Virus record (IMG/VR): IMGVR_UViG_3300030108_003057
Span: 1 to 64,000 of that record
Length of the DNA stretch: 64,000 nucleotides
Origin: a virus
Direction: 5' to 3' (one strand)
Part shown: positions 41,235 through 61,686 of the stretch, piece after piece
Position numbering within the stretch: position 1 is the stretch's first letter
Layout of the letters: each line of letters opens with the position of its first letter
Notes under the pieces: generated by a model
Databases searched by the model: none
Told to the model about the DNA's origin: nothing
Seen by the model: the letters and a program-made list of their open reading frames with translations, nothing else
Program-made: the position numbers and the translations under genes

Positions 41235-41264
41235 AACTTAACTCCATATCACAAATTTCACATT

Positions 41265-42335: not shown

Positions 42336-42370
42336 TTTCTGCCTGTTAAGGCAATAGTTAGAACAGATTT

Positions 42371-42413
42371 GAGTATATAAGGTACTAGGAGCAAAGCGCC
42401 CGTACCATATGGT
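42371..42413. promoter_or_regulatory. TATA-box plus CCATATGG module, copy 1
   Basis: GAGTATATAAGGTACT...CAAAG...CGTACCATATGGT between divergent genes; near-identical module at 44236. Confidence 0.6.
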
Positions 42414-42460
42414 AGTTAATTTACGAACACTTTGTAATAGTAATTTAAGTACCTCAAAAT

Positions 42461-42985: not shown

Positions 42986-42994
42986 TCTTCATTC

Positions 42995-43041
42995 GGGGTA
43001 GGGGGTAAAACCCCTATCCCACCCCTTCGGGGTTCTTTTTT
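42995..43041 (+). terminator. Double hairpin with T-tract
   Basis: GGGTAGGGG-gtaaaa-CCCCTATCC, then CCCC-TTCG-GGG, then TTCTTTTTT. Confidence 0.7.
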
Positions 43042-44235: not shown

Positions 44236-44275
44236 GAGTATATAAGGTACTTACCAAAGTGTCGTACCATATGGT
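44236..44275. promoter_or_regulatory. TATA-box plus CCATATGG module, copy 2
   Basis: GAGTATATAAGGTACT...CAAAG..TCGTACCATATGGT; no adjacent ORF. Confidence 0.55.
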
Positions 44276-44678
44276 GACGAAGGAACCTTAAATTAAGGTA
44301 TTCACTACGTCAGAACATGCGGATATTAACTTGACTCTTTTCCAGCGTTGTAAATTAATTACTAACAGCAACAAAAAAGAGCCGGCGTTAATACCGTTTC
44401 TGTACCATATGGAGTGCTCATTATGAGCAAGAGAAACGTATTTAATTTATTTAAATGAATGTTGAACGTCTCCTCGCGGGCTACTTCATAAAACACATTT
44501 TTCATTAACTTCGTACCATAAATAATCTATTTTATTCGTACCATATGGTTCCGCTTTGCGTGAACTTGTTTTGTTATTTAAATAACGAAATCAAATAACC
44601 TATTTAATATAGTATATTTCAAATAACCATATCTTTATAGGTAACCCGAAACTTTTCTTTACTTGGAGGGAAATTATA

Positions 44679-45230: not shown

Positions 45231-47615
45231 ATGTCTTGGCGTAATATTTTAAAGGATGAAGCAGTAGAAAATTTTGGTTCATCCAGTAGTAATATTATAG
45301 AAGATGTAGATAAAATTCTATATGATATTCTTGATGAACAAGTAAAAGAAATTAAAGATAAGTCTAAAGATTTTGAAAAACAATGGGATTCTGCTACTGC
45401 AAAGATACCCGGAGTCAAAGGAAATGTCGGTGGAAAATTTATATCAGAAATATATGAACAGACACTAATGAATTCGATGAATTATTTTATAAATAAAAGA
45501 AGGTCAGACGTTTATATGGGTATATATAACGCTATAAAAAGTAATACTGCTATTCCACTAGTTAATGATTTCGATAATGAAACATTTAAAGCAAATGTAA
45601 GTGTTTCACCGTTAGATTATTTTAGTGCTTTAATGCTTAAACCAGAATCTGACGATGATAGTGGGTTAGGTAACCTATTCGATAGGATGAAAGTAGATAG
45701 TTCGTCTTGGGATAGTACAAGAAGTATATTTAGGAGTAGATTAATAAAAATTATAGATAAAAATACAGCGAATCATAAAATGAAAATATTTGAACCCAGT
45801 GAAAAAGGACCGTCAGAAAGCACACTTTTACCAAACGCCTCTATGTTTATGAATTTAGAAGGTAGAGATAGAAATATACTCTATGCTAAAGTTCCAATTG
45901 ACGGCGCCCCTCCCGCTACTTTTAAAATATCCTTACGAGAATTCTTAGTAATGCTAATAAATGTAAATAAAAACGAGATTGTTGAAACATATCGACTCTT
46001 TCTAAATTTAGTTAGTAGGGTTAATGAAAAACTTAAGTCTTTTTGGGGAGTAGATAAAGATTATATGCTAAGTGGTGGAAGAGATATAGAATATGAAGAA
46101 GCGAACACTTTCTTTGGATTTTCTCCAGAAGAATTAGGTGAAGGTATTGAAAGAACATTGGTAAGCGGAGTAGTAAGGGCGCAAAAAAATATTAATGATA
46201 CTGTTAAAAATCTAAAGCAGATAGAAGTTGTTGGTGAATCCACCGCAAAATATGATAAAAGATTATACACATATGGGGAACTTGGGGCAACTCCACCAGA
46301 AGGTAAAACTGCAAAAGATATTGTTGAAACATTTACTGATAAGACTAAAAAATTAACACAGCGAGAAATAAAACAACGAGATGACGTTGATTTAACAGGT
46401 TTAAATATAATGCAGGGCGACAAGAAAATAGGAATATTACTTTATAAAATAGTAATTCCAGTTAAAAGAGGGGAAGATATATCAAAGTTCTTATCGAGTA
46501 AGGAAAGGCAAATGATAGATTATCCTAGTCTATATGCGAGTGCATTCATGGAGCGAGTGTCGGGTCTACGTGGCGGTAGAGCAGGTCGAGTAATGCCTGT
46601 TATATTTATTGGTACCGTGGCAGAAGACAGCAACAAACGTAATAGAACTATAGAGTCTTATGTTGAAGCACCTTCTATTAAAACAATTGGTAGAATTTTT
46701 ACAGAACCAGAATCCTATAATTATCCTACTCCATCAGAATTAGTCGCTACGGGTTTTGCATCAGATACTGTAACAGATTTCTTACCTAGCGTAACGTCCA
46801 GTGAATTTGCTAGATTAGTATATCATGAACCTTCTGAAAGAAACTTTATAGAATATAAATTTACTATACCGTTGATAGAGTTTGGAAATGCAAAGATTAA
46901 TTATAGAACCCTAGAAGATACGATGGAAGATGGTCTTATATCATTTAAAAATTATTTAATCCAAAATAATTTACTAAAACAAGAAAATGCCTTCAGAATA
47001 ACTGAGGATATAACGGTGGATTTTATGAGATACTATAGAGGAACAATTAACAATTTATCAGGTGTCGGTACCATTTATAATCATGTAAACCACTATCTAG
47101 GGTGGCAAAATCGTAGTTTTGAAGGAACAGAAACTTTATTTCAGATGGGTGATAAGTATAATATAGACATTGTAAAATTACTTACCTTATCAGGACTCAA
47201 AGTAAAGAAATTTGAATGTAAAATTTTCTTAGATGTGTTTGGTGCTATGAGGTCAAGGGGAGAAAAAGGACAACGTACTAGGAGTTCACAATATGGTGAT
47301 TATACAGTATCTTTAGGTCAACCACATCTTTGTTTTTATAGCGACTTAAAAAGTGGTAAGATTTATCCAGAAACAGGCGGCGGAGATGTATGTATAGTTT
47401 TATCGTCTAATGTACCTGTTGCTGATGCAGTAGGCCCCATAAGTTTACAATTATTACAGTTAGTTAATATATTAGAAGATTTTTCAAAAGAATTTGATAT
47501 TAGAAAATTTACACAATTAAAACCGATGGGTATACAAAGTGACTTGTCTGGAAAATTTGCTAGTATAATAGGTAATTCTGAAGTGAAACCAGTTGGTGAC
47601 GTTAAGGTGGTTTAA
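45231..47615 (+). CDS. Large hypothetical protein with MSWRNILK tag
   Basis: Tag starts at the ATG at 45231; C-terminal 'GDVCIV...PVAD' cysteine motif. Confidence 0.7.
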   Translation: MSWRNILKDEAVENFGSSSSNIIEDVDKILYDILDEQVKEIKDKSKDFEKQWDSATAKIPGVKGNVGGKFISEIYEQTLMNSMNYFINKRRSDVYMGIYNAIKSNTAIPLVNDFDNETFKANVSVSPLDYFSALMLKPESDDDSGLGNLFDRMKVDSSSWDSTRSIFRSRLIKIIDKNTANHKMKIFEPSEKGPSESTLLPNASMFMNLEGRDRNILYAKVPIDGAPPATFKISLREFLVMLINVNKNEIVETYRLFLNLVSRVNEKLKSFWGVDKDYMLSGGRDIEYEEANTFFGFSPEELGEGIERTLVSGVVRAQKNINDTVKNLKQIEVVGESTAKYDKRLYTYGELGATPPEGKTAKDIVETFTDKTKKLTQREIKQRDDVDLTGLNIMQGDKKIGILLYKIVIPVKRGEDISKFLSSKERQMIDYPSLYASAFMERVSGLRGGRAGRVMPVIFIGTVAEDSNKRNRTIESYVEAPSIKTIGRIFTEPESYNYPTPSELVATGFASDTVTDFLPSVTSSEFARLVYHEPSERNFIEYKFTIPLIEFGNAKINYRTLEDTMEDGLISFKNYLIQNNLLKQENAFRITEDITVDFMRYYRGTINNLSGVGTIYNHVNHYLGWQNRSFEGTETLFQMGDKYNIDIVKLLTLSGLKVKKFECKIFLDVFGAMRSRGEKGQRTRSSQYGDYTVSLGQPHLCFYSDLKSGKIYPETGGGDVCIVLSSNVPVADAVGPISLQLLQLVNILEDFSKEFDIRKFTQLKPMGIQSDLSGKFASIIGNSEVKPVGDVKVV

Positions 47616-47616
47616 T

Positions 47617-48168
47617 ATGTGGTGGGATATAATTAAGTCGGATGACCTGCATAAAGATTTTAAATTTAGACAAGGTAAACCTTGGAGAGTAAGATTTTTA
47701 ATGTGGGCGGGTAATAAAATTAATCATCTTCTTGGTGGTCCACCTAAACAATTTCTTATGTTAGGTGGTTATCAACCAAAAACCGGAGAGGCAGATGCAT
47801 ATTTAGATGATATAAAAGAGTATCGTAAAAGATATGGTGGGACATATACAGAAATAATAACAGACATATTAACTCACGAATATGTTCATAAAGTATTAAC
47901 CGAAGACCCCGAAATAAATAAACTATTAAAACCATATAGAAAACATAGATTTGACCCTTTGGCTGTTTCTGCTCAAGAATGGGCAGCAAACCAAATGTCT
48001 ACTACTAGTGAATTACAAGCATTATATAATTTATTACAACACCCAGCAGTTCCACAATCTACAAAAATCAGGGCTGAAGAAAAAATAGACAGGGTATATA
48101 CAATTAAAGAAAAAGTAGAAGATGAGGTAGAGACATTCCTACAAGAAAACCCAGTGGAGGAACAATAA
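47617..48168 (+). CDS. HExxH zincin-like protein with MWWDIIK tag
   Basis: 'DILTHEYVH' followed by a downstream Glu (AQEWAA). Confidence 0.6.
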   Translation: MWWDIIKSDDLHKDFKFRQGKPWRVRFLMWAGNKINHLLGGPPKQFLMLGGYQPKTGEADAYLDDIKEYRKRYGGTYTEIITDILTHEYVHKVLTEDPEINKLLKPYRKHRFDPLAVSAQEWAANQMSTTSELQALYNLLQHPAVPQSTKIRAEEKIDRVYTIKEKVEDEVETFLQENPVEEQ

Positions 48169-49007
48169 TGTGGTGGGATATAATTAAATCAAAATGGGTA
48201 GATAATCTATCCGAGAAAAAGAAAAAGATATTAGAACATAAACCATCTTTTGAAGTAGATGTTCCTAAAATGTCTTACCCTGATGATGAAAAGGAAATAA
48301 AGGAAGTCATTAAAATTATGAAAGATAAACCAGTCCCTAAAAAAATAATGGATAAAAATGATAAGGATGCCGATACATTGATGTATGGTATTGTAGGTGC
48401 GAAAGCCGCAGACTATAAAGATTTTAAAATGGATTTAGACTCTTATGTTATGCAAGAGAAAATGAAATATGAAAGACCTAGACCAAATGAAAGTTCTAAG
48501 TTAAGTGAAACTAAAACCAAAACAGATGATACTCCGGCTTTTCCGTCGGGTCATGCTACTTTAGTATATGCTTTAGAAAAAATATTGGGTGCAAAACATC
48601 CTAATAAATCTGATGAATTAAGTAAGATGGCGGAAATGTTAGCATTGGCTAGAGTTCAAATGGGTTCTCATTATCCTTCTGATATTGAGGCAGGTAAAAA
48701 ATTAGGTTATCTTATTGCTAAAGAATATTTAAAAATTAATAAGGCTAAAATAAAAGCACATATGCCCACACTAAGACAGGCTCTAAAAGAAATAGACCTA
48801 CCTGAAAGATTTACCTTAGCGGAAATTAAACAACCGTTAAGAGAAAAATATATTGAGTTAAGACAAGATGAGGTAGACGGCTATCAATTAAGAAGAGAAT
48901 TAGCAAAATTAGATAGAAGTCATGTTTCTATTGTTCCTAGAATTCTAAATAGTATGCGTATTTATTCTAATGAAACTCGTGGCGGTCTTGCATTATTTAG
49001 AAGGTGA
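48168..49007 (+). CDS. PAP2/acid phosphatase-haloperoxidase family protein with C-terminal wHTH-like domain and MWWDIIK tag
   Basis: KMKYERPRP, PAFPSGHA, ARVQMGSHYPSD. Confidence 0.85.
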   Translation: MWWDIIKSKWVDNLSEKKKKILEHKPSFEVDVPKMSYPDDEKEIKEVIKIMKDKPVPKKIMDKNDKDADTLMYGIVGAKAADYKDFKMDLDSYVMQEKMKYERPRPNESSKLSETKTKTDDTPAFPSGHATLVYALEKILGAKHPNKSDELSKMAEMLALARVQMGSHYPSDIEAGKKLGYLIAKEYLKINKAKIKAHMPTLRQALKEIDLPERFTLAEIKQPLREKYIELRQDEVDGYQLRRELAKLDRSHVSIVPRILNSMRIYSNETRGGLALFRR

Positions 49008-49011
49008 AGTA

Positions 49012-50241
49012 ATGAATTGGAAAAATATTATATCTAAGGACGAGGACACAGAAGTTTTAGATGAAGGGTTGGTTAATAAAATAAAAACTGAAATACTACC
49101 TAACTTAAAAGAAATGATTGACGTCCTAGGTATATCAAAAGATTTAATAACATTACATAGGATTATTAATTCTGCCGAGGCTACAATTAGTAATATTCAA
49201 GGTAAAACTGAACAGGAAATTGATGAAATGTCTAAAAGCGGATATTTTCAGTTTTTAAAAACTTTACCAACTAATTATATGTATAATACATTTGTAAACG
49301 CAGATGCTGTAATAACTAATGCTTTACTTCAATATGAAGAACTACGGCCAAATTCTATTGATAGAATAGCAAATGCGTTAGAAAGAAATATAGATATGGC
49401 TAAAAAATTTATAAATTTAGCGGCTGCTATGCAAATTAAAGTTGATTGGGTGGATAATCAATTTAGACTATCGGTAGGTGATTATTTTAAGGACGTGAGT
49501 ATAGAAACAATATTTGATGAATCAGGGCCAGAATTTGTATACGAATGTAATCTTATTCGTGTTCGTGATAGACCAAGAGACGTAATCTGTTTACAGCAAG
49601 GTTCGGAAAGTAGAGCAACCGGTTTTGATATGGAGTTAAGTTCGATGGCAACAATCTCAGCAGCACTTAAAACAAACTTGGGTAATACTTTAGGTGATAT
49701 TGGACACTGGATAGATTACTGGATTTATTTAACCAGTAAAGGATTTCAAGTAGATGCTTGGGAACAAGAAGATAATCCGGATATTACAAGACTAATTTTT
49801 GATAAGTCAATTGATGCAGAAAGATTTAGAAGATGGAAAATGGAACCCTTTCATAAAAAATATGATAAATCATCTAGACCTTTTAATAGAAGAAGAGGCC
49901 AAACAAATGACGTAATATTTCCTAAAGCAATAGAATATTATGATGATAAAATGTATATTCCATATGCGCGAGATTATAATGAAATAGATGTAAGTAATTG
50001 GGGTCTAAGTGTTAAAGAACATGTTGCTAAATTTGGAGACATAGATAGTAATGAATATAAAGATTTTAGTAATTTTAAACTTTGGAGAGAACCAGAGCCT
50101 GAACCAGAAATAGTAGACGCAGAAATAGTAGACGAAGACGATGAAAGAATTAATCAAGAAGTAGATGAATTAATAGATGTCTATAATAGACGAAGAGATG
50201 ATGATGATAATGATTTTAACCCAGCAGCGGCAAACGCATAA
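49012..50241 (+). CDS. Hypothetical protein with MNWKNIISK tag
   Basis: Tag at the ATG at 49012; acidic tail; 'DVICLQ' motif. Confidence 0.65.
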   Translation: MNWKNIISKDEDTEVLDEGLVNKIKTEILPNLKEMIDVLGISKDLITLHRIINSAEATISNIQGKTEQEIDEMSKSGYFQFLKTLPTNYMYNTFVNADAVITNALLQYEELRPNSIDRIANALERNIDMAKKFINLAAAMQIKVDWVDNQFRLSVGDYFKDVSIETIFDESGPEFVYECNLIRVRDRPRDVICLQQGSESRATGFDMELSSMATISAALKTNLGNTLGDIGHWIDYWIYLTSKGFQVDAWEQEDNPDITRLIFDKSIDAERFRRWKMEPFHKKYDKSSRPFNRRRGQTNDVIFPKAIEYYDDKMYIPYARDYNEIDVSNWGLSVKEHVAKFGDIDSNEYKDFSNFKLWREPEPEPEIVDAEIVDEDDERINQEVDELIDVYNRRRDDDDNDFNPAAANA

Positions 50242-50307
50242 TTAGAAATGTTTATTAATAAATAAGCATTACATTAGTAATGTTAATAAGACTATGAAGT
50301 GTTTAAC

Positions 50308-51957: not shown

Positions 51958-51962
51958 TTAAT

Positions 51963-52511
51963 ATGGGATGGTTTGATATATTAAAGAAATTAACTCGTGA
52001 TGAAATGGGTCAAGTTAGACCATATATTAAGGATGAGTTAGAAGAAGGTAAAAAGAGAATAAGAAGTGTCCGTAATCGGTATCGCTATAAATTAGGTAGG
52101 GAGCCAACAGAAGAGGAATTACGAGAAGAATTATCTAAACCTCCTAAAGTTAAAAGACCGAGAGGCGGGCAGCGTAAAATGCGACCTAAGATTAGGGACC
52201 ACCCCGCATATAGAAGATTAATAGCACGGTTTAGACGAGAGGGCCAAAACAGAGTACCCACCGAAGAAGAATTACGACAAGAAATATCTAATCCAACAAA
52301 ACTTTTAGCAGGAAGACAAAAAAGAGTGCCGCCACAACGAGCAGAAAGATTTGAATTATTTGATAATATTAAATTATATTTAGAATCTCAAAATATAACC
52401 CCTACTGTTATGAACATTTTAGAAGAACTTAGTGATTCCGATAAAACTAATCGTGAAAAAGATATAAATGATATTGGTGAATATTTAAGAACACAGAGGA
52501 TGAGTGATTAA
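51963..52511 (+). CDS. Basic protein with MGWFDILK tag and an internal 'R.PTEEELR.E.S.P' repeat
   Basis: The repeat occurs twice, with a degenerate third copy. Confidence 0.65.
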   Translation: MGWFDILKKLTRDEMGQVRPYIKDELEEGKKRIRSVRNRYRYKLGREPTEEELREELSKPPKVKRPRGGQRKMRPKIRDHPAYRRLIARFRREGQNRVPTEEELRQEISNPTKLLAGRQKRVPPQRAERFELFDNIKLYLESQNITPTVMNILEELSDSDKTNREKDINDIGEYLRTQRMSD

Positions 52512-52512
52512 T

Positions 52513-52809
52513 ATGCCAATAAGAAAAGTTAAAGGTGGATATAAGTGGGGCAAATCTGGTAAAGTTTATCCTACTCGCAAACAAGCAGAAAAACAAGCAG
52601 CCGCTGCCTATGCTTCTGGTTATAAAAAATCAGAAGAACGTGGTGAATGGTTTAATACTCTTAAAGCAAAAAAGAAGAAAACAAAAAAGGATGCTTGTTA
52701 TCATAAAGTAAGAAGTAGATATGATGTTTGGCCTTCTGCTTATGCTTCTGGTGCTTTAGTTCAATGTCGAAAAGTCGGCGCAAAAAACTGGGGGAAGAAT
52801 AAGAAATGA
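52513..52809 (+). CDS. Small basic two-module protein with an internal WFNTLK tag
   Basis: MPIRKVKGGYKWGKSG module plus the ACYHKVRSRYDVWPSAYASGALVQCRK module typical of marine phage small basic proteins. Confidence 0.65.
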   Translation: MPIRKVKGGYKWGKSGKVYPTRKQAEKQAAAAYASGYKKSEERGEWFNTLKAKKKKTKKDACYHKVRSRYDVWPSAYASGALVQCRKVGAKNWGKNKK

Positions 52810-53003
52810 GTTGGCGCGATGAAATTAAAAGGTACGAAGGTGATAATGAACTAGTTACTATTTTAGGACAGTTTGCTTTTAATATAGAAGAAGTAATCAA
52901 AGAACTAAAGAAACCTAAACCAAATGTTAGAGAACTAATTAATAAATTAGAGTACGATTTAGATATTACTGTAACAGAACTAAGGTCTGAAATGGAGAAA
53001 TAA
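52806..53003 (+). CDS. Small protein with MSWRDEIK tag
   Basis: Coupled ORF with the tag. Confidence 0.6.
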   Translation: MSWRDEIKRYEGDNELVTILGQFAFNIEEVIKELKKPKPNVRELINKLEYDLDITVTELRSEMEK

Positions 53004-53005
53004 AT

Positions 53006-53260
53006 ATGACTTGGGAAGATATTTTAATTAAAGATTGGGTATCTTGTGCTTCATGTACTGATGATAAACCCGGAACAGAACCTTGTGGGAGAAAAGATGC
53101 TTCTAAAGGAACTAAACGTAGATGCCGACCAACTTGTTCTGCTTGTAAAGATTATAAACGTAGAGCAGGTAAAAGAGGTAAATCAAAAAGAAGAAAAGCC
53201 GGAACGTTTAAATTAGAACAAGACCAAGGGTTACACGGTTGGTTTAAGAGGAGAGGATAA
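53006..53260 (+). CDS. Small Cys/Lys-rich protein with MTWEDILIK tag
   Basis: WV...PCGR...CRP; GLHGWFK. Confidence 0.6.
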   Translation: MTWEDILIKDWVSCASCTDDKPGTEPCGRKDASKGTKRRCRPTCSACKDYKRRAGKRGKSKRRKAGTFKLEQDQGLHGWFKRRG

Positions 53261-53261
53261 T

Positions 53262-53462
53262 ATGAGTTGGTTCGACGTTATTAAATCTGATAAAGTAATT
53301 GAAGATAAAATTATTGCTGAGTTCAAAAAAGAAGGAGGTGCTTTAGGTATGAAAAATCTCAAAGCAATTGCACCACCTAAAGAACTTAATAGAGTATTAG
53401 ATGCTATGAAGCGCAGAAAATTAATTTATGTACATGAGCATGGCGACTTAATTATGAGGTGA
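53262..53462 (+). CDS. Small wHTH-like protein with MSWFDVIK tag
   Basis: Helix-turn-helix-wing pattern. Confidence 0.55.
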   Translation: MSWFDVIKSDKVIEDKIIAEFKKEGGALGMKNLKAIAPPKELNRVLDAMKRRKLIYVHEHGDLIMR

Positions 53463-53466
53463 ATAA

Positions 53467-53754
53467 ATGAGTTGGTTTACTGTTCTTAAAAAGGACAAAA
53501 AAGATATGCGTGTAGGTCGCGTATATCCCAGTGATAGAGCAGGTAAAAAAATTATGATGTTAACTCATGAAGGTAAAAAGATTCACGCCGGAGCAAAAGG
53601 TTATGGTAACTATAAACGTTCTGGTAAAAATAGAGGCGGTGGAACTCATCGTAGTAAAAAACGACGTAAGAGTTTTAGAGCAAGACATAAATGCCATGAG
53701 TGTAAAGGACGCATTACTACACCACGTTGTTTAGCCTGTAAAAAGTTGTGGTGA
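53467..53754 (+). CDS. Small basic protein with MSWFTVLK tag
   Basis: KIHAGAKGY...RRKSFRARHKC...CKKLW. Confidence 0.65.
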   Translation: MSWFTVLKKDKKDMRVGRVYPSDRAGKKIMMLTHEGKKIHAGAKGYGNYKRSGKNRGGGTHRSKKRRKSFRARHKCHECKGRITTPRCLACKKLW

Positions 53755-53758
53755 TAAT

Positions 53759-54097
53759 TTGTGGAAAAATATTCTTAAGGCAGAACCGGCAAAAGGTACG
53801 GGTAAAAAACCAAAAGGTTCTAGCAGAAGATTATACACTGATGAAAACCCAAAAGATACAGTACCTGTAAAATTTAGAACTGCTGAAGATGTTAGAAATA
53901 CTTTTGCCAGTGCAGCGTTTAAATCTAAACCACATAAAAGACAATCACAAATAATTAATTTAGTTGAACAACGCGCAAGAGTTGCGGCGAGAAGGGCTAA
54001 AGACCCAGAAGCAAAAAAACGTTTACGTTCAGCACACAAAGTCGCATTGGCTAGAAAAGAATCAAGTAAAAGAAAAACTGAGAGGATGAATAAATGA
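53759..54097 (+). CDS. Small basic protein with MWKNILK tag (TTG start)
   Basis: GTGKKPKGSSRRLYTDENPKDTV motif; GGTGA RBS. Confidence 0.65.
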   Translation: MWKNILKAEPAKGTGKKPKGSSRRLYTDENPKDTVPVKFRTAEDVRNTFASAAFKSKPHKRQSQIINLVEQRARVAARRAKDPEAKKRLRSAHKVALARKESSKRKTERMNK

Positions 54098-54567
54098 CTT
54101 GGCAAAATATTATTAAACAATCTTTTATTGTTAAGATAAATTTTCCAGAAGCAGACTTTTGGCTACAGACAAGAGGTACAGAAGATAATGTCGGCAAACC
54201 TTTAAAACAATTTTCTCCAGTTCAAGGTAAATATAATTTTGGAATTAAAGTTCCAGAAGGAATGAATAAAGCCTATGTGTATAAACAATTAGCGGACTTA
54301 TATAGAAACGGTTATTGGAAAATTAATTCTTATGGTACTTTAAATTTACAACACATACGTAAGAATGATATTATTAAAGTATTAGATAATATGGAAGATA
54401 AAAAAGATTATAAAGATGAAACATCTGATAAATTTCAAGACCTATATAACAATTGGTTAAATCAATCAAAAAATATAGGTATGTTATTAGAAGGTCACAG
54501 TTCAGAATTAGTTCGTGAAGGTAGAGAGATAAGAAGATTTATTAAAAAATTGGAGGACATGAGATGA
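54094..54567 (+). CDS. Hypothetical protein with MTWQNIIK tag
   Basis: ADFWLQTRG...VGKP...GIKV...GTLNLQHIR. Confidence 0.6.
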   Translation: MTWQNIIKQSFIVKINFPEADFWLQTRGTEDNVGKPLKQFSPVQGKYNFGIKVPEGMNKAYVYKQLADLYRNGYWKINSYGTLNLQHIRKNDIIKVLDNMEDKKDYKDETSDKFQDLYNNWLNQSKNIGMLLEGHSSELVREGREIRRFIKKLEDMR

Positions 54568-55373
54568 GTTGGTTTTACGGTATTATTAGAAAGGCTGAAG
54601 AAGTTGTATTGGCAACAAGATTAGCACAATTACCAGATGAATTACAACAAATGATAAGAACTAGAGAAGGTGAAGGTTATCATCTTGGGGCTTATGTTCC
54701 AGCAGAAGATACAACATACATATATTTACCTGATTTTAAACGCGCGATTGATGAGAAAAGAGAGGGAGTTATGCGAGGAAGACTAGGTGAAGATGCGAGT
54801 TTCGCTCAGATGTCTGATGAAAGATTTGAGAGAATATTTATGAATAAATTTCTTGATACATTAGAGCACGAAAGTCTACACAGTGCTATGGATAAAGAAA
54901 TTAAAGAATGGGTTAAAGGAGAGGTAGACAGTTTTAACGAACAAATAACGATGAGAGTTTTACGCAGATTCGTAGAAAGAAGTGATAACCCAGATAGTTT
55001 ATTTAATAGAACAAATTTACGAAATATAGCAATACCTAGACTAACAGAAATATTAACGGTGTCTGCAACAAACTTAGTACACGAAATATTAGTTAGGATG
55101 CTATTACAAAGAGATTCTGCGCTAAGTTCAAATCAATTAAAAGAATATGTTATGATGTATTCTAAAGTTATAGTAAATGAAATAAGAGATATGGTTACGA
55201 ACTTACCGGCAAATGCTTCAATAGAAGATGATGTAAACCAATTTTATCAAATGGTATTATCACTAATGAGTGGATTTTGGTCGGAATATATGAAAGTATA
55301 TTATGATTTTAGTTTAGACTATACTTCAGGGGTTATAGTAGAGACTATAAACGAAGCGTTAGATGAACTATAA
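54564..55373 (+). CDS. HExxH zincin-like protein with MSWFYGIIRK tag
   Basis: GAY...IYL...TLEHESLH. Confidence 0.6.
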   Translation: MSWFYGIIRKAEEVVLATRLAQLPDELQQMIRTREGEGYHLGAYVPAEDTTYIYLPDFKRAIDEKREGVMRGRLGEDASFAQMSDERFERIFMNKFLDTLEHESLHSAMDKEIKEWVKGEVDSFNEQITMRVLRRFVERSDNPDSLFNRTNLRNIAIPRLTEILTVSATNLVHEILVRMLLQRDSALSSNQLKEYVMMYSKVIVNEIRDMVTNLPANASIEDDVNQFYQMVLSLMSGFWSEYMKVYYDFSLDYTSGVIVETINEALDEL

Positions 55374-55818
55374 GAGGAAGACAATGAACTTTAACATATT
55401 AAATGAATACGAAATACGCGCTATCTTATCTGATTTTACAAGTTCGACAGACAAAGGTTATCCTGAATTAGTTACACCTCTAACATATTATACTAGAGTG
55501 GATGGTGAACAAATTCTAGCCTATTCGTCTTTTTCTGATATGGGTAATTTTTATTTCGTAGGCAATACATATGTTATGCCAAATAGTAGAGGTAAAGGAG
55601 TGTATACTAACTTACTAACTAATAGAAATAATCATCTAAAGGATAAACCTAAGATAACATTAGTTAACCCAATAGAGGGTACAGATATTTCTCAATTACT
55701 GTATCAAGTAGCAAAACAAGGCGGAAAGGTAGTAAATAGTTATGAAGAAGTGGCAGATATTATGTCGGAAGATATTTATACCTCTTTATCGAAACTACCC
55801 ATGTACATATACAGGTGA
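55363..55818 (+). CDS. GNAT-family acetyltransferase
   Basis: YVMPNSRGKGVYTNLL acetyl-CoA binding motif A. Confidence 0.7.
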   Translation: MNYKRKTMNFNILNEYEIRAILSDFTSSTDKGYPELVTPLTYYTRVDGEQILAYSSFSDMGNFYFVGNTYVMPNSRGKGVYTNLLTNRNNHLKDKPKITLVNPIEGTDISQLLYQVAKQGGKVVNSYEEVADIMSEDIYTSLSKLPMYIYR

Positions 55819-56009
55819 TAAGAATGCCCCGCACTGAATGGTTTAATCGTTGGTTAGATGAAAACTTCCCAGATGAAGAAGTAGAAGATGTTTTTGAAAA
55901 GACTTTAGAATATATTGATAATAGTGAAAATGATACTAGAACACTACAAAAAATTAAGGCTTATATATTACAGGCTTTTAGTATGTCTAAGGGAGATGAA
56001 GAGGAATGA
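55815..56009 (+). CDS. Small acidic hypothetical protein
   Basis: Coupled ORF. Confidence 0.5.
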   Translation: MIRMPRTEWFNRWLDENFPDEEVEDVFEKTLEYIDNSENDTRTLQKIKAYILQAFSMSKGDEEE

Positions 56010-56263
56010 GTTGGGAACTCTACCTTAAATCCATTGACCAAAAAGAAATTGATAGTTGGACAGAAGCATTAAAGGCTTTTATTAAACAAGGTAGAGAACT
56101 AGGAATTCCATTAGATATAATGTCTGAATTAGAAAATGCAAATAAAGCAGTTGGCGCAACAGTTACTACTTCGCCGGGATTTACTCCCTCAATTCATAAT
56201 ATAGTTTATGGTTCATGCCCCAAGTGTAAAGATAAAAAATCTCCTTGTGGGTGTGATAAATAA
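56006..56263 (+). CDS. Small protein with MSWELYLK tag
   Basis: Tag; C-terminal CPKC...CGC. Confidence 0.6.
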   Translation: MSWELYLKSIDQKEIDSWTEALKAFIKQGRELGIPLDIMSELENANKAVGATVTTSPGFTPSIHNIVYGSCPKCKDKKSPCGCDK

Positions 56264-57666
56264 TGAGTGAATATAAAGCATTAGAAAATATTTCTGATGA
56301 TATTCAGGAAATAATTAAAAACGCAACAACAAGATGTATTAGGGCAATTGAAGCAAGAGTGCCTAACACTGGTGTAGCGGGTGAAGGTAATAGACCTAAA
56401 AAAATTATAGAAATAATGAGAAGACACGGTGAAGGCCAATTTGCTAGAAGTACAGTAAATCTGTTCGATGGAATGGGTAGAGCCTTAGATTTAATAGAGA
56501 TATTACAAAATAAAGATGAAATACTAGTAGAAGATATACAAAATCTAAGAGAAGCACAAGAAATATTAAAAACAATATTAGCAGATAAAACTCATAAAAA
56601 GAAAGCAGGAGGCACAAACCCTAGAAATATTAGATTTAGAGTAGTTACTAAATTTAAATTAGAAGATGGTAAACCAGTTGTTGTCGATAGAGGTGATGTT
56701 TTTGGTCACTATAAAACACCAACTGTAATAAGATATTTAGATGCTAGAAAGGAGTATGCTAGACAACAAGGTGAAGAATATACTGGGCCGAACTATAAAG
56801 AAAGTTCAGAAGATGTTAGGTTTTGGGCTAGTGATAAACCAAATACTAGCAAACCACCATTGTTTGTTGCTCTCCAAACATTTGAAGCAGAATTAAGAAA
56901 AATCCTTAAAGAAATAAAAACGCCACCAGAACCAGCAGACCCAATAGTAATAAATATAGATAAAGGTGTTAAGTTAGAACCGTTTTCTAAATTAGCATCA
57001 TTAAAGGAAGGATTTCGTGAGATAGTAAGTAATCCAGAAATATATCCCAAAATACCAACACGTAGAGATGGTAAAAAGGTATTAGGTTCAAATAAACCAA
57101 TAATTGTAAGTTATGATAAAAGTCAAAGAGCAGGTCAAAAAACCTTTACATCTGAAGTAACTGAATATATTTTTAGAATAACAAGTAACGCTGATAGAAA
57201 AATATTAGATGAGGCAGTTCCGGGTTGGGGAGAAGAAGGTAAAGATTTGGCTCAAACAAGTTCTTTAGAAGAATTTAGACTTAAAGTTAATAGCACAAGA
57301 CGCACAAAGACATTAGTTAGATTAACATTGGGTGGAGAACTATCAACCATTAGAATACCGGATAGAACACCGGGAGTAGTATTGAAAGCACAAGAATTTT
57401 TAGAAGAAATAAATAAAAGTAGATATAGCGATAAAAATAGACAATCAAAAAAATTAGAAATAATAGATAAAATATTGACTAACTCTTCTGAGCCTTTAAC
57501 TGTTAGAGAAATTTTAGAGCGTTGGAGAGGTTTAACAAATTATGCTGGTAGACCATATAAAAATATTCCAACTACTAATGAATTAAGTATGATACTAAAA
57601 CGACACGGTTATAAGATAGTTAACACAGTAAGAAAAATATCATATTGGGGACCGAGGAAGGAATAA
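56263..57666 (+). CDS. Hypothetical protein with C-terminal wHTH-like domain
   Basis: 'PLTVREILERW...IPTTNELSMILK' after an 'EINKS' junction. Confidence 0.65.
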   Translation: MSEYKALENISDDIQEIIKNATTRCIRAIEARVPNTGVAGEGNRPKKIIEIMRRHGEGQFARSTVNLFDGMGRALDLIEILQNKDEILVEDIQNLREAQEILKTILADKTHKKKAGGTNPRNIRFRVVTKFKLEDGKPVVVDRGDVFGHYKTPTVIRYLDARKEYARQQGEEYTGPNYKESSEDVRFWASDKPNTSKPPLFVALQTFEAELRKILKEIKTPPEPADPIVINIDKGVKLEPFSKLASLKEGFREIVSNPEIYPKIPTRRDGKKVLGSNKPIIVSYDKSQRAGQKTFTSEVTEYIFRITSNADRKILDEAVPGWGEEGKDLAQTSSLEEFRLKVNSTRRTKTLVRLTLGGELSTIRIPDRTPGVVLKAQEFLEEINKSRYSDKNRQSKKLEIIDKILTNSSEPLTVREILERWRGLTNYAGRPYKNIPTTNELSMILKRHGYKIVNTVRKISYWGPRKE

Positions 57667-57668
57667 TT

Positions 57669-57950
57669 ATGTCTTGGGAAAATATTGTTAAAAGAAAAAA
57701 GATGAAACCTTTGTATAAAAAATTAATTGATGATGTAGTAGAAGAATTATATAGCCCTGCATCTGCTCAAGAAATATATTCGCTGATGCGTGATAAATTT
57801 GAAAAAGAAATACAATTCTCCGGTCGTAAAGTTTTAACTGGAAGATATTTCCCAGATATAGGTGCTGTTAGACAGTATCTTAAAGTTAATCACAAATCTA
57901 CGGGTATGTTTAAACAAAGAAAATTATACGGTGGTAATCAGAATGACTAG
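57669..57950 (+). CDS. wHTH-like protein with MSWENIVK tag
   Basis: 'PASAQEIYSLM...FPDIGAVRQYLK'. Confidence 0.6.
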   Translation: MSWENIVKRKKMKPLYKKLIDDVVEELYSPASAQEIYSLMRDKFEKEIQFSGRKVLTGRYFPDIGAVRQYLKVNHKSTGMFKQRKLYGGNQND

Positions 57951-58605
57951 AGTAACCCGTAAAACCTGCCCAGTATGTAATCACGAAGAACGTGATATAA
58001 TAGAACAAGGAGTTCTTGACGGAAGTATTGACCCATCAGTATTAGATAAAGATAATGGTTGGTGGAATGGAACTACCCGTAAACATATGCAAAACCACAC
58101 AGACAATTATGTTTCACATTCAAACGACAATTGTAAGTTATGTACACATCAGTCAAGGGCTGATATTGAAGCAGGTCTTTCAGATGGCCGCACCAAAGTT
58201 AGCGAAATAGCAGAACAATTAGAAATGTCTGAGGATGCCGTACAATTACATTTAAGAAAGCATCTAAAACCTATGATACAAAAGAGCGCGGCTATGGAAT
58301 TAGCACGTATTGATTTTAATGAAATGGACGTGCTTTCTAACAATATTGCTATACTACAAAATAAAGTAAATGGTTTAGCGGATAACGAAAACCTTAACTT
58401 TAAGGAAATAGATTCTTTAACTAGATTAGCAAAGGAAATAAGGGAATCCCTTAAATATATGTTAGAATTTAAAGGACAATTAGTACACAAGAGAGAAGAA
58501 ACTATTGTGGTCCAGCAGGTTGAGGTTATTCAAAGAGTATTAATTGAAAAATACCCCGAAGTATGGACAGACATAAGAGATGCAGTTGCGGAGAAATTAC
58601 AATGA
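57943..58605 (+). CDS. Zinc-finger/HTH protein, possible terminase small subunit
   Basis: Two C-x2-C-x-H...H-x3-H modules with an HTH (VSEIAEQLEMSEDAVQLH) and a coiled coil. Confidence 0.55.
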   Translation: MTRVTRKTCPVCNHEERDIIEQGVLDGSIDPSVLDKDNGWWNGTTRKHMQNHTDNYVSHSNDNCKLCTHQSRADIEAGLSDGRTKVSEIAEQLEMSEDAVQLHLRKHLKPMIQKSAAMELARIDFNEMDVLSNNIAILQNKVNGLADNENLNFKEIDSLTRLAKEIRESLKYMLEFKGQLVHKREETIVVQQVEVIQRVLIEKYPEVWTDIRDAVAEKLQ

Positions 58606-58799
58606 GTTGGGAAAATATATTCAAAAAAGAACCCGTTAGGATTGATTTTACGAGCAGTAAGAAACTAATGGCTTGGGTAAGTGATGAATACGGTACTGGG
58701 AGAGGCCCATTTACAATAGAATCTATTTATGCTCAGTTAAAGAAAGATGGGACTTTTGAAGATAGAATGGAATTTATTGATGATAAAAGAATTAGGTGA
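58602..58799 (+). CDS. Small protein with MSWENIFK tag
   Basis: ATGA-coupled; carries the tag. Confidence 0.6.
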   Translation: MSWENIFKKEPVRIDFTSSKKLMAWVSDEYGTGRGPFTIESIYAQLKKDGTFEDRMEFIDDKRIR

Positions 58800-58804
58800 T
58801 TAAA

Positions 58805-59008
58805 ATGAGTTGGTATGAAGTAATAAAAGTAAAACTTGCAGGTTTACCGGCTTATTCTGGTACATGTCCTAGATGTAAAAAATTTATTAGAACTGGTGAC
58901 CCTTGCCCATTAAATTTACCGGCTCCTAGTGCTGAAGATTCTCCAGAAGATATTATGTTAGAATCATGCCCTATGAAAGTAGATGATGACGCAATACATC
59001 TGGAGTAA
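58805..59008 (+). CDS. Small cysteine-containing protein with MSWYEVIK tag
   Basis: CPRC...CP...CP. Confidence 0.6.
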   Translation: MSWYEVIKVKLAGLPAYSGTCPRCKKFIRTGDPCPLNLPAPSAEDSPEDIMLESCPMKVDDDAIHLE

Positions 59009-59013
59009 TTCAT

Positions 59014-59214
59014 ATGACCTTACAGGGTATTATTAATACCATAAATAATTCTATACGTAGTTTAGAGGAATATAAAAAAACCTCACCACGAAATATAGAA
59101 ACTACCATAAATAAAACAATAAGTTTATTAAAGACATTGAGAAGTCAGTATACGGAGTACCTAACTACTCAAACTAAATTGGGGGATTACGATGGGCAAG
59201 CATCCAAAAGATAA
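59014..59214 (+). CDS. Small helical protein with PIP-like C-terminus
   Basis: ...TQTKLGDY. Confidence 0.5.
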   Translation: MTLQGIINTINNSIRSLEEYKKTSPRNIETTINKTISLLKTLRSQYTEYLTTQTKLGDYDGQASKR

Positions 59215-59545
59215 AAGTTTTAATGATAAACTTATGATTTTGATGGGAGTGCCTATTGTACTAACATGGTTAGGTTTAGCCGCATATGTTATTTATATGG
59301 CTACTAAAGACCCTGACGTAGTTCTACAAAACTTAGATGGGTTTACTGCTGTATTAGGATTAATTGGTGGTCCCGCTTTACTAATTATTACTAGTATGTT
59401 AGACCTATGGAAGAACGAACAGGCTAACGAAATTAATGAGATTCCTTCTGAATTAGCGCATCGTCGCACTCTTCAAGAAATGGAGCAAAAACACGCTCTA
59501 TCTATGGATGCCTTTTTAACAAAAACGGAGGGTAAAAAAGAATGA
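59192..59545 (+). CDS. Two-TM membrane protein
   Basis: Two hydrophobic helices and a coiled tail. Confidence 0.6.
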   Translation: MGKHPKDKSFNDKLMILMGVPIVLTWLGLAAYVIYMATKDPDVVLQNLDGFTAVLGLIGGPALLIITSMLDLWKNEQANEINEIPSELAHRRTLQEMEQKHALSMDAFLTKTEGKKE

Positions 59546-59667
59546 GTTGGTTTAATATTATTAAGAAGTTAAGTGGTAAACAATATAAGATTGATGCTAA
59601 TAAAGATGGAAAAATTACGGAAGAAGATTTTAAACAGTTAAGAGAGAAAAAAGCAAAAGAGGAATAA
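59542..59667 (+). CDS. 41-aa EF-hand-like protein with MSWFNIIK tag (not in ORF track)
   Basis: MSWFNIIKKLSGKQYKIDANKDGKITEEDFKQLREKKAKEE; ATGA coupling. Confidence 0.7.
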   Translation: MSWFNIIKKLSGKQYKIDANKDGKITEEDFKQLREKKAKEE

Positions 59668-59669
59668 AT

Positions 59670-59873
59670 ATGACGACAGAAAAAGAAGTTACAGATAAGG
59701 TTGAAAAGGCCGAAGATTTAGTTGAAGAAGTTTTAGAAGAATTAGAAGATTTAGGATTAGTTGATGAGGCTACCACGAATAAAATTTTAGCGAAGGTGGC
59801 TTTATATAAACGCTATATTCTAATAGCAGTTCCTGTTGTTATTGCTCTTGTAGCCGCTATTAGCGCGCTATAA
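59670..59873 (+). CDS. Small protein with C-terminal membrane anchor
   Basis: Acidic N-terminus, ILIAVPVVIALVAAISAL. Confidence 0.6.
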   Translation: MTTEKEVTDKVEKAEDLVEEVLEELEDLGLVDEATTNKILAKVALYKRYILIAVPVVIALVAAISAL

Positions 59874-59883
59874 GGGTGATAAT

Positions 59884-61686
59884 TTGATAGACTGGAAAGA
59901 CCTGTTGATTAGAGAAAATGCTACACCCGGCAGTATTGCTAGACAAAGTATAAAGACACCAAGGGAAGCAAGCGCCGTTAAGTCATTTATAGATGATTTT
60001 GAAAGTGCTGAAAAAGATGTCGCTGCTAATAATGAAATTACTAATCCAAATGTATCGAGACTAGTAAGATATGGTAGTATTGATTTAGAAAACATTTCTA
60101 GAATATTACAAGCCCTAAAAGATAAATACGAAGAATCTCCATTGATAGTTCTTAGTAAACAATTTAATAATTTACTAGACGCATTTACACAAGACCCCGA
60201 CCAGTATGATAGATTGTCTAAATTCGTAACTGAGACATTATATCCTGATGATAGTTATGAACCAGTTATTACTAATTTAGCGGAGTTTAGAGATAGAATA
60301 GTATATAGTGATAAAGAAGAATTATTAGATTCCTTAGAGGCAGTAATGTTAAATGAAGAGATTCGTAGTGAACCATTCGATAAATTAATTAAACTATTAC
60401 CCAATATCACTCGCACACTAATTCTTAGCGATAGAGAAAATAGAGCAGATATTAAAACTGAGTATACATATACAGTTGCTCCACTAGTAAGATTTACAGA
60501 TGTTCTTAAAGGTAATAAAACTACTCTAGAAAAGTTCAATGATTTATTTAGATATTTAGTTAATGAAAACTGGTTAAAGGATAATATCTACAAATTTTAT
60601 ACTGGTGGGGTTCGTCAAGGAGAATTTGATGTTAGGTCACCTATGTATACTTTATTTAAAATATTAAAATTTACAGAAAGAGAAGATATATTTTCTGACC
60701 CCGCTATGGGTGCAGTAATGGGTAGAAGAGAACAATTGACCAGCCGTAGACCAACACTATTTAGATTATTTATTACTGAATATTTATCTGGAAAAATTTC
60801 AGGTGTTACTAAAGAAGAGGCAGACGAGTATAACAGATTAAGTTATGAAGATAAAACTACAAGAGAAGATGAAGAAATAGAAAGAATAACATTACCCAAA
60901 ACAGCAGCAAATTCATTAAAACCCAACTACGACGAGTGGTTAGTGAATCATAGAGCGTTTATGGGAGAGTATGCTAAAACCGAAAAGTCATTTGAGCAAT
61001 TATATCGAAATACATTTCAAGGTGATATAGATAAGGGTAGTATATTTAGCCTATGCATTCCGAGAAAGGAAAATGAAGGTACAGTAGAACTTACTAATTT
61101 CTTAACTGATGATAGTTGGCCCTCCAATATATCGGAAGCCGACGCTAAAATTATCCTAAAGGCATACTTACGCATAATTGGAGATTTTAGTAAACTAGGA
61201 TTTAGCAATATAGATACTAATAAATTATTACAAAATCTAAGAAACATTACTAGTGATATAAGAGAACTAGAGTATACAGTGACTCGTCGTGGTGAAACTG
61301 AAACTAGAAAATTATTTACATATAATAAAGATACTGGTAACTTAAATCCCCCAACGGCACGTAGTCTTGATAATATTAAAGGCATGGAAAATATAAATAA
61401 GTTAATAGAAGCCTTTATTACTGATTTCAAACAAGCACTCGATGAAACTAGCGAAGCCATATGCAAAAGCATACATTCGGCAGTTGTTGATAACATTGAT
61501 AAAAGGTCAATAAAAAGATATAATATTTTAGTTAGAAGAGAAAAGAAGTTAGATAAGAGAGGTAAACAAATGAAAGATACGTCTGGTAATGTAGAATATA
61601 TATCTAGAAAGGAAGGAACAATCCAAGAATGGATTCAAGACTTCGGCGGCAAAGATGAACCGTTAATAACTGCAAGGAGGGAGTAA
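59884..61686 (+). CDS. Large helical hypothetical protein (divergent tag MIDWKDLLIR)
   Basis: TTG start with GGGTGA RBS. Confidence 0.65.
   Translation: MIDWKDLLIRENATPGSIARQSIKTPREASAVKSFIDDFESAEKDVAANNEITNPNVSRLVRYGSIDLENISRILQALKDKYEESPLIVLSKQFNNLLDAFTQDPDQYDRLSKFVTETLYPDDSYEPVITNLAEFRDRIVYSDKEELLDSLEAVMLNEEIRSEPFDKLIKLLPNITRTLILSDRENRADIKTEYTYTVAPLVRFTDVLKGNKTTLEKFNDLFRYLVNENWLKDNIYKFYTGGVRQGEFDVRSPMYTLFKILKFTEREDIFSDPAMGAVMGRREQLTSRRPTLFRLFITEYLSGKISGVTKEEADEYNRLSYEDKTTREDEEIERITLPKTAANSLKPNYDEWLVNHRAFMGEYAKTEKSFEQLYRNTFQGDIDKGSIFSLCIPRKENEGTVELTNFLTDDSWPSNISEADAKIILKAYLRIIGDFSKLGFSNIDTNKLLQNLRNITSDIRELEYTVTRRGETETRKLFTYNKDTGNLNPPTARSLDNIKGMENINKLIEAFITDFKQALDETSEAICKSIHSAVVDNIDKRSIKRYNILVRREKKLDKRGKQMKDTSGNVEYISRKEGTIQEWIQDFGGKDEPLITARRE

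Follow-up and report, generated by a model that had tools for sequence, protein, structure and literature searches.

A short N-terminal peptide shared by unrelated proteins of a probable magrovirus resembles the C-terminal end of the prohead protease-scaffold: a candidate capsid-docking tag

Introduction

Why do about twenty otherwise unrelated proteins of one virus begin with the same short peptide? The question is raised by the IMG/VR virus record IMGVR_UViG_3300030108_003057, of which positions 1 to 64,000 were analyzed (this whole stretch of 64,000 nucleotides is called the window). An initial annotation, made from the sequence alone, had noticed the N-terminal peptide, in the following termed the tag, and had proposed that it loads proteins into the head of an archaeal virus. 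We found that the tag occurs in many related loci, that its conservation ends sharply after eight residues and that it matches the C-terminus of the protease-scaffold encoded by the relatives. It may therefore be a docking peptide for the procapsid.

Magroviruses are among the most abundant archaeal viruses of the surface ocean; none has been cultured, and for the majority of their genes no function is known. They were first recognized by a major capsid protein (MCP) that is nearest to haloarchaeal siphoviruses (PMC5434244). Genomes of the Magrovirales (e.g., Aoguangviridae) comprise 90-100 kb with approximately 32% G+C, their archaeal-type replication module is opposed to a caudoviral structural module, and their MCP is nearest to that of the Druskaviridae haloviruses (PMC5434244, PMC10768690). 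The window and its relatives fit this description in G+C content, opposed modules, replication genes, an HVTV-1-like MCP and complete relatives of 92-96 kb; among cultured viruses, the MCPs of the relatives are nearest to those of the haloarchaeal siphoviruses HVTV-1 and HCTV-1. By this match to published descriptions, rather than to the reference genome ON649702, the virus probably belongs to the magrovirus lineage. The published magrovirus descriptions that were searched contain no mention of an N-terminal motif, internal proteins or targeting, and a literature text search for the motif strings gave no occurrence.

Results

The tag in the window

By a six-frame scan of the window, 21 open reading frames (ORFs) were identified on the + strand that open with a tag of the type M-[STN]-W-x-[DN]-[IV]-[LI]-K, three of them at 10668-11301 and 18 at 45231-59884. 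All tagged starts listed by the initial annotation were recovered. Each start has its own Shine-Dalgarno (SD)-like sequence (GGTG, GAGG or GGAGG) located 5-10 nt upstream, and TTG serves as the start codon at 53759 and 59884. Degenerate variants of the tag, with an insertion of one residue or with E or Y at position 6, occur at 49012, 52806, 53006, 54564, 56006 and 59884. With the strict pattern, for which approximately 0.01 tagged starts per window are expected by chance, 16 of 45 + strand ORFs were tagged as opposed to none of the 52 ORFs on the - strand (Fisher P = 8e-7). The replication genes, which had been described as free of the tag, indeed lack it; their block on the - strand contains the genes for PolB, an ATP-dependent ligase, a ribonucleotide reductase and a PD-(D/E)XK nuclease. 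The gene blocks are opposed, the G+C content of the window ranges from 0.30 to 0.37, and the skew flips at approximately 12 kb and 44 kb.

The tagged block is preceded by a non-coding strand-switch region (positions 39928-44549), which lies between the divergent gene blocks. According to the initial annotation it is rich in CCATATGG palindromes, and it is likely a promoter/origin region driving the tagged genes.

Distribution in relatives and in cellular genomes

A degenerate DNA pattern of the tag matched more than 120 contig stretches of IMG/VR, a lower bound, many of which gave several matches each. The set of related loci comprised 123 IMG/VR loci with 1.08 Mb and 1735 called ORFs, 474 of which start with the tag. 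The scan of N-termini across relatives that had been proposed at the outset extended the tag far beyond the window. The consensus across the loci is M-S-W-[EKQF]-[DN]-I-L-K, with an information content of 2-6 bits at positions 1-8 and of less than 0.3 bits from position 9 onward. Within the 123 loci and the window, the core W-x-x-[ILV]-[ILV]-K was encountered 503 times, 397 times at residue 2-3 of an ORF and another 49 times directly after an internal Met. After masking of the tag, the tagged proteins fell into 283 BLAST clusters including 213 singletons, in line with the earlier statement that they are unrelated after the Lys. Most of them are short (median 108 aa).

In every locus the tagged genes lie on one common strand (456 of 456), which is that of the morphogenetic genes in 264 of 281 cases. 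Two relatives are complete and terminally redundant. One of them (G004, 95.6 kb) carries 23 tagged ORFs among 130, the other one (G006, 92.2 kb) 11 among 135; all tagged genes of both reside on the structural-gene strand and none on the replication strand. The tag-bearing loci represent roughly one virus family, with their TerL, portal and MCP sequences sharing an identity of at least 55%, 57% and 44%, respectively. In the 123 loci, TerL, portal and MCP as well as the conserved proteins c6 and c9 were never tagged. For comparison, 25 genes of the HVTV-1 structural module were inspected and no N-terminal tag was found; the end of the HVTV-1 protease did not disclose a clear match either.

In prokaryotic genomes (185,579 species genomes, 596 Gb) the same pattern, a DNA pattern biased to A/T-rich codons, gave 88 single scattered matches, of which 59 were not located at an ORF start. 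Matches in cellular genomes are at chance level, and the possibility that host genes carry the motif just as often was not confirmed.

Two contigs deserve separate mention. The sole cellular-genome contig with several tags, NZMJ01000167.1 (8051 bp, labelled as a metagenome-assembled genome of Maricaulis sp.), has four tagged ORFs within 2.4 kb and most likely represents a magrovirus-like fragment that was assigned to a bacterial genome by erroneous binning. On G004, nine tagged paralogues of 113 to 806 aa follow each other in a run (82722-89600, equivalent to L048 1103-7969). This locally expanded family shares a longer N-terminus, in which the tag is followed by N-I-Q-I-S-[SG].

Conservation at the peptide level

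Ile6 is encoded by ATA, ATT and ATC, Leu7 by all six leucine codons and Lys8 by AAA and AAG, each at approximately background frequencies. This synonymous usage at positions 6-8 indicates that selection acts on the peptide. The initial annotation had inferred conservation of the peptide from the fact that codons differ between copies. The inference was corroborated, and the codon argument itself holds for I6, L7 and K8, but not for the preceding codons: Ser2 is encoded by AGT in 86% (background 26%) and never by AGC, the alternatives at residue 2 (S/T/N/K) are all derived from codons starting with A, and codons 2-5 prefer A/T endings. An A/T bias in early codons typically marks an initiation region that is A-rich and unstructured.

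The motif is also found away from gene starts. A profile of the eight tag positions gave 29 matches outside the N-termini, compared to 0-1 in shuffled proteomes. Met-less internal copies are conserved between orthologues, namely ...KKSWKDILKK... and ...KKGWKTILKK... at residue 40 of a 151-aa family, and the conserved c5 family often ends with the tag-like sequence K-K-S-W-x-x-[IM]-L-[WKR]. The conserved internal and C-terminal copies indicate that the tag is a linear peptide motif, possibly for binding, and not merely a start context.

Some giant proteins of 1057-1753 aa (L033:97-3268, L067:3457-8351, L084:7106-12367) contain the internal sequence ...F-G-S-M-S-W-G-D-I-I-K-G-L.... Their tag-like motifs, of which the L084 protein has three repeats, are followed by Gly/hydrophobic stretches. 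These proteins are possibly tape-measure-like.

The tag matches the ends of scaffold proteins

In the relatives, the tagged block is followed by c5, a Zn-ribbon/helix-turn-helix protein (HTH220), a tagged gene of approximately 750 aa, c6 and TerL. Behind TerL there are a gene with an HNH-like C-terminus, the portal gene, small tagged genes (among them the conserved families c2 and c39), a gene for a protein of 75-85 aa and c10. The order ends with an 880-aa protein containing an ATP-dependent-ligase domain, the S78 prohead protease-scaffold and the MCP. The families c2 and c39 are located between portal and MCP; c39 opens with (MS)FMDILRK, a variant in which F replaces W. The prohead protease (Pfam Peptidase_S78, HK97 type) is fused to a scaffold-like acidic/coiled region and is encoded directly upstream of the MCP.

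Both the protease-scaffold and the 75-85 aa protein, a small scaffold-like component of the head module, end with M-[SD]-W-x-[DE]-I-[HNR]-x-[MLI]-[VA] and 3-6 further residues. This end shares with the tag M1, [SD]2, W3, [DEN]5, I6 and often K8. It had been suggested to look for the tag at the N-terminus of the scaffold or capsid protein; the motif does occur in the scaffold, but at its C-terminus. All 120 of the closest database homologues of the protease-scaffold, which are 73-100% identical overall, end with MDWSDIH[KR][MF]V. We estimated the chance of a five-position match at approximately 1e-6 per position and, when about ten core head proteins are considered, at roughly 0.004.

N-terminal tags are absent from more distant relatives of the MCP lineage, whose G+C content is 40-48%. 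Nevertheless, their S78 protease-scaffold ends with ...W-T-K-V-H-D-V... and their small scaffold with ...KMTWREVEDYV. As the C-terminal motif is kept in lineages without N-terminal tags, it is older, and the N-terminal tags appear to be derived from it.

A search for co-variation of tag variants with scaffold-end variants across the loci yielded nothing usable. Co-folding of the MCP with the conserved tagged protein c2 gave a score of 0.00, which is the tool's output for no answer and speaks neither for nor against binding. Regarding the window's own head module, no c6 relative was found in viral or metagenome contigs, and the close fragments L002, L003 and L039 do not contain an MCP.

Two other properties of the head module were noticed. 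Between portal and protease-scaffold it encodes proteins of 800-880 aa with an ATP-dependent DNA ligase domain (PF01068, E 8e-28; L047:4902-7544 on the - strand, G004 20624-22990, G006 68059-70557). They are separate from the replicative ligase (window 26640-28133), yet cluster with it, have a partly conserved tag-like W-K-K-[IT]-[IV]-K near residue 44 and may be packaged 'polyvalent' head proteins. Furthermore, the MCPs of tag-bearing viruses have approximately 450 aa (e.g., L047:2287-3654 on the - strand), while most of 362 database representatives have 370-400 aa and align from about residue 55. The extra N-terminus contains the conserved sequence D-L-E-A-x-T-Y-G ... N-x-L-L-K-[SA]-x-G and could be a small scaffold-contact or propeptide region.

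Properties of the tagged proteins

Pfam families were assigned to only about ten of 150 diverse tagged representatives with at least 110 aa: six PAP2, one pentapeptide repeat, one GNAT, one 2H/CPD phosphoesterase and one DUF6782 metallopeptidase. A PHROGs search of the tagged proteins disclosed nothing further of known function. Membrane segments were predicted for three of the 474 tagged ORFs (0.6%), in contrast to 142 of 1261 untagged ORFs (11%). The picture of a modular N-terminal address on unrelated proteins was upheld by the number of clusters, the near absence of membrane segments and the location on the morphogenetic strand.

The modularity is best seen in the PAP2 family. Pfam confirmed the PAP2 phosphatase that had been proposed at 48168-49007, and nearly all of its approximately 75 viral homologues begin with the tag. 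In distant cellular homologues, which JGI names class A acid phosphatases, classical Sec signal peptides stand at the start. Thus, the tag has replaced another address. It does not itself have the form of a Sec or Tat signal, in which a basic n-region (with RR in the case of Tat) is followed by a hydrophobic h-region of 7-15 residues, as it comprises eight residues with three hydrophobic positions and a polar region thereafter.

The gene product of 47617-48168 is the sole tagged protein that was modelled. In the AlphaFold model (overall predicted local distance difference test score, pLDDT, 63), residues 1-12 are unstructured (pLDDT <50) and not packed on the domain; the tag is accordingly predicted to be an accessible, unstructured extension in this protein. 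The fold is weakly zincin-like (Z 4.5), and the best matches, which include minimal zincins and YbeY, reached Z values of at most 4.7. Of the two zincins postulated earlier (47617 and 54564), both contain the HExxH motif, but the one fold modelled, that of 47617, gave this weak similarity only. The basic, Cys-rich small proteins of the same annotation were confirmed by composition.

Tagged and neighbouring genes of the window

All genes listed here are located on the + strand. The first group was identified by the six-frame scan and an SD sequence in the case of 10668-10823 (51 aa, MSWENILK); it continues with 10828-11304 (158 aa, MSWEKVIK) and 11301-11981 (226 aa, MNWEDIVK), neither of which belongs to a Pfam family. 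The first tagged gene past the strand-switch region, 45231-47615 (794 aa, MSWRNILK), has no Pfam or PHROG family. It is followed by two genes starting with MWWDIIK, the already mentioned 47617-48168 (183 aa), which has a conserved HEYxH found by motif search and was studied by its predicted structure, and 48168-49007 (279 aa), whose product resembles soluble PAP2/class A acid phosphatases according to Pfam and its homologues.

Scan and SD sequence also support 49012-50241 (409 aa, MNWKNIISK with one residue inserted before K), 52806-53003 (65 aa, MSWRDEIK, degenerate with E at position 6), 53262-53462 (66 aa, MSWFDVIK), the TTG-initiated 53759-54097 (112 aa, (M)WKNILK without residue 2) and 54094-54567 (157 aa, MTWQNIIK). 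Three small genes were characterized by scan and composition, 53006-53260 (84 aa, MTWEDILIK, basic with six Cys), 53467-53754 (95 aa, MSWFTVLK, very basic with four Cys) and 58805-59008 (67 aa, MSWYEVIK, four Cys). The product of 51963-52511 (182 aa, MGWFDILK), identified by the scan, showed a weak Pfam match below the cut-off to sigma-70 region 3, and that of 54564-55373 (269 aa, degenerate MSWFYGIIRK) a HESLH motif in scan and motif search.

Farther downstream, the scan revealed 56006-56263 (85 aa, MSWELYLK with Y at position 6, the family keeping W-x-x-Y-L-K). It abuts the untagged conserved gene c5 (56263-57666, 467 aa), for which family comparison and the predicted structure indicate a C-terminal winged helix. 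The tagged gene 57669-57950 (93 aa, MSWENIVK) is followed by the untagged HTH220 gene (57943-58605, 220 aa), a fixed neighbour of the tagged block in the relatives, and by two more tagged genes, 58602-58799 (65 aa, MSWENIFK) and, beyond 58805-59008, 59542-59667 (41 aa, MSWFNIIK); these three tagged genes rest on scan and SD sequence. The ORF 59884-61686 encodes 600 aa if the TTG start is used, opens with the divergent (M)IDWKDLLIR and occupies the position of the tagged gene of approximately 750 aa that precedes c6 in the relatives. The untagged conserved gene c6 (61688-64000, approximately 820 aa) is cut by the window end.

Searches of c5, c6, c9, c39 and the large + strand ORFs against Pfam and PHROGs gave nothing useful except for the HNH-like C-terminus of c9. 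Profile searches with c5 and c6 against PDB sequences did not give a match, and c6 had no usable match in the ESM Atlas. The c5 model (pLDDT 77.6) had no Foldseek match, and VIA-align retrieved only a generic winged helix at residues 388-465.

In most genomes, a small tagged ORF ending with ...S-P-A-(L/M)-F-x-x-S-Y-(G/S)-K-K overlaps the start of c5 (window 56006-56263/56263-57666; L100, L057, L073, L065). At L068:5103-6398, tag, small-ORF peptide and c5 body constitute one ORF, and the c5 family therefore has split and fused forms. A programmed frameshift joining the small ORF to c5 was considered but not supported, since a +1 shift is required and no fitting slippery site was found. The in-frame sequence DILRKRR upstream of some c5 genes was rejected as a tag, because it results from translation of the ribosome-binding region, which overlaps the preceding gene.

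At the other end of the window, 311-6625 is a + strand ORF of 2104 aa without a Pfam or PHROG match. Its homologues in complete relatives (2022-2515 aa) lie downstream of the head genes, and it is presumably a tail or fibre component.

Discussion

How the tag may work

Capsid-binding determinants of HK97-fold viruses sit at the C-termini of scaffolds and proteases. By analogy with these C-termini, which bind the capsid, the octapeptide would be a variant of the scaffold-end peptide that binds the inner face of the MCP during procapsid assembly, at the same site as the scaffold end. Within the tag, W3, I6 and L7 lie on one helical face, and the end reads [DN]-I-[LI]-K. A soluble protein presenting this peptide at a free end would be co-assembled into the procapsid, and the virus would thereby pack a large and rapidly evolving set of proteins, most of them small, numbering about 20 in the case of the window and 11 and 23 in the complete genomes. 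The tagged proteins should then bind to the capsid protein, be present in virions and perhaps be delivered into the next host. That the tag is a docking peptide copied from the capsid-binding end of the scaffold, by which cargo is co-assembled, may just as easily prove right as wrong.

Removal of the tag by the S78 protease after Lys8 is possible, though rather doubtful. The HK97 protease cuts its MCP after a Lys. Hints of cleavage are the sharp boundary of conservation at K8 and the presence of an HK97-type protease together with a conserved [ND]-x-[LI]-L-K-[SAG], once D-I-L-K-S, at approximately residue 25-30 of the MCP. The sequence F-x-I-L-K-[SA] near the N-terminus of the protease was rejected as a second cleavage site. 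It coincides with the beginning of the S78 domain match and is presumably the canonical first strand of the S78 fold.

More doubtful still is the scenario in which the scaffold peptide has become a portable address for 10-25 rapidly exchanged proteins per virion, which would be trimmed after Lys8 and injected together with the DNA as a first-strike arsenal against Poseidoniales hosts. Phosphatases, HExxH proteins, the pentapeptide-repeat protein, GNAT, the 2H phosphoesterase and many ORFans might make up such an arsenal.

Several points weigh against docking and its extensions. The viruses are uncultured, and docking is deduced from sequence. The comparison of the tag with the scaffold ends was made post hoc and within one or two related families. 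Moreover, the head module lies outside the window, so that the match was taken from relatives sharing c5, c6 and HTH220. In the window as well as in the complete genomes, the tagged block is located directly past the strand-switch region, a position that would also fit early host-takeover genes. From the preference for AGT at codon 2 it is evident that selection of the peptide is overlaid by a constraint on nucleotides or initiation. With regard to cleavage, the closest protease homologues as a rule also have Lys or Arg at position 8 of their C-terminal motif, where it cannot be cleaved; Lys8 may therefore be a docking residue, which weakens the argument. Finally, an effector role is a guess, as most tagged proteins have no recognizable function.

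Alternative explanations

The early position leads to the most serious alternative, namely that the tag is recognized by a viral or host machine other than the capsid. We regard this as unlikely. The partner might be a chaperone or chaperonin, or a protease timing the turnover or activation of early host-takeover proteins. The products of putative viral E1/JAB/ubiquitin-like genes are further candidates, for which Lys8 might serve as the acceptor or W-x-x-[ILV] might bind ubiquitin-like proteins. Such a machine would suit genes that stand where early genes are expected, that are small, fast-evolving ORFans like typical host-takeover genes and that are always accompanied by c5 and c6, two conserved genes of no known function. 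However, the closest match of the tag in the whole data set is formed by the C-termini of the protease-scaffold and the small scaffold-like protein, which act inside procapsids; c2 and c39, the latter with its variant tag, are encoded within the head module, and an enzyme family tracking the tag was not encountered. The replacement of a Sec signal peptide in the PAP2 family could also be taken as a sign that the tag is an unconventional export signal sending soluble proteins out of the infected archaeal cell, all the more so because the tagged proteins are soluble, often small and in some cases basic and Cys-rich. This is improbable for a peptide that has neither a hydrophobic core nor a twin-arginine motif, that recurs internally and at C-termini, that is shared with the protease-scaffold, a non-exported protein, and for which the DNA-pattern scan of prokaryotic genomes disclosed no use by a host.

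The remaining two explanations place the signal in the nucleic acid. If the conservation mainly served translation initiation or mRNA structure by reuse of an optimal start context, the Ser2 codon bias, the A-starting second codon, the A/T-biased codons 2-5 and the individual SD sequences would be accounted for. We consider this very improbable, since the synonymous codons of I6, L7 and K8, among them six Leu codons, stay at background, other genes of the same operons are translated although they lack a tag, the motif is conserved far from any start, and W3 is invariant although Trp is rare and costly. Least probable of all is that the shared 24-nt start is a recombination linker for the exchange of gene cassettes between viruses, with the peptide as a passenger. 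The tagged block is indeed hyperplastic, as its many singleton clusters and the differing neighbours among close relatives demonstrate, and the SD sequence plus ATGAGTTGG constitutes a run of shared bases. Past the first nine bases, though, nucleotide identity is low because synonymous sites vary, and the sharp amino acid boundary, the absence of membrane proteins and the C-terminal copies are left unexplained. A linker would at most explain how tags spread, not why they are kept.

Significance

By one octapeptide, about a fifth of magrovirus genes are grouped into one functional class with a testable hypothesis, i.e., docking to the scaffold site. If this hypothesis is true, the virus evolved cargo loading by copying the capsid-binding end of its scaffold, protein delivery along with the genome extends to archaeal viruses at a large scale, and proteins could be loaded into HK97-fold shells by means of a minimal tag. 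Should the arsenal scenario apply, no larger set of effectors delivered by virions would be known for an archaeal virus, and a ready-made protein-packaging tag would come with it. Even with a partner other than the capsid, the tag marks a system of sorting or recognition that has not been described before and is used by hundreds of protein families.

Comparison with known systems

The principle of a capsid-targeting peptide is known; new are the sequence, its putative origin from the end of an S78 protease-scaffold, the archaeal virus lineage and the scale. In phage T4, the internal proteins IPII and IPIII carry at their N-terminus a capsid-targeting sequence, the CTS (Mullaney and Black 1996, reviewed in PMC9958956). 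Like the tag, it is an N-terminal peptide of approximately ten residues on otherwise unrelated, non-essential proteins; it directs them into the procapsid's scaffolding core, and the cargo genes are variable, some of them countering host defences. The CTS consensus is MKTYQEFIAE, and there is no sequence similarity to the tag, so that the analogy is functional only. While the short N-terminal peptide on unrelated proteins of one virus is common to both systems, the T4-type prohead protease with its cleavage motif is not: the gp21-type protease cuts after [LI]-x-E, whereas the lineage studied here has an HK97-type S78 protease-scaffold, and the tag ends with I-L-K and lacks [LI]-x-E. In addition, T4 tags a handful of proteins, as opposed to 11 to 23 per genome in these viruses of archaeal hosts, which are known here from their genes.

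A signal within the first 30 residues of the phage P1 protein DarB is sufficient to send a reporter into the capsid (PMC9024508). DarB is an anti-restriction protein delivered to the host, similar to the proposed cargo; unlike the tagged proteins, it is a single protein that is added stepwise with helper Dar proteins, and its signal has no consensus across many genes. Cargo-loading peptides of encapsulins resemble the tag as short terminal peptides that bring diverse cargo into the interior of an HK97-fold shell. Encapsulins, however, are not viruses, and their shells come without terminase, portal and tail, whereas here terminase, portal and tail genes are present, with TerL, portal and S78 protease all found in the relatives.

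The maturation protease gp4 of HK97 is reportedly carried into the procapsid by its C-terminal end, which can carry foreign proteins as well (Duda, Oh and Hendrix 2013). It is an S78 protease like that of the relatives, whose C-terminal decapeptide is nearly invariant; HK97 differs in that it is not known to have a tagged cargo family and that its MCP carries the scaffold as delta domain. The scaffold of phage 80alpha and CpmB of SaPI1 share a C-terminal RIIK 'helix-and-hook', which inserts into the HK97-fold capsid protein at the same site (PMC5644958). There, as in the viruses described here, different proteins have one short terminal motif in common; in 80alpha and SaPI1 this is an amphipathic helix followed by an [RK]-I-I-K-like hook, which docks beside the N-arm of the capsid protein. 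The relatives of the window likewise have a conserved short motif at the extreme C-terminus of their scaffold/protease, and the same motif was found, at the sequence level only, on other proteins that would enter the same procapsid. In 80alpha and SaPI1 it is C-terminal and restricted to two scaffolds; here, a variant of the scaffold end stands at the N-terminus of hundreds of non-scaffold proteins, which are predicted to dock by it.

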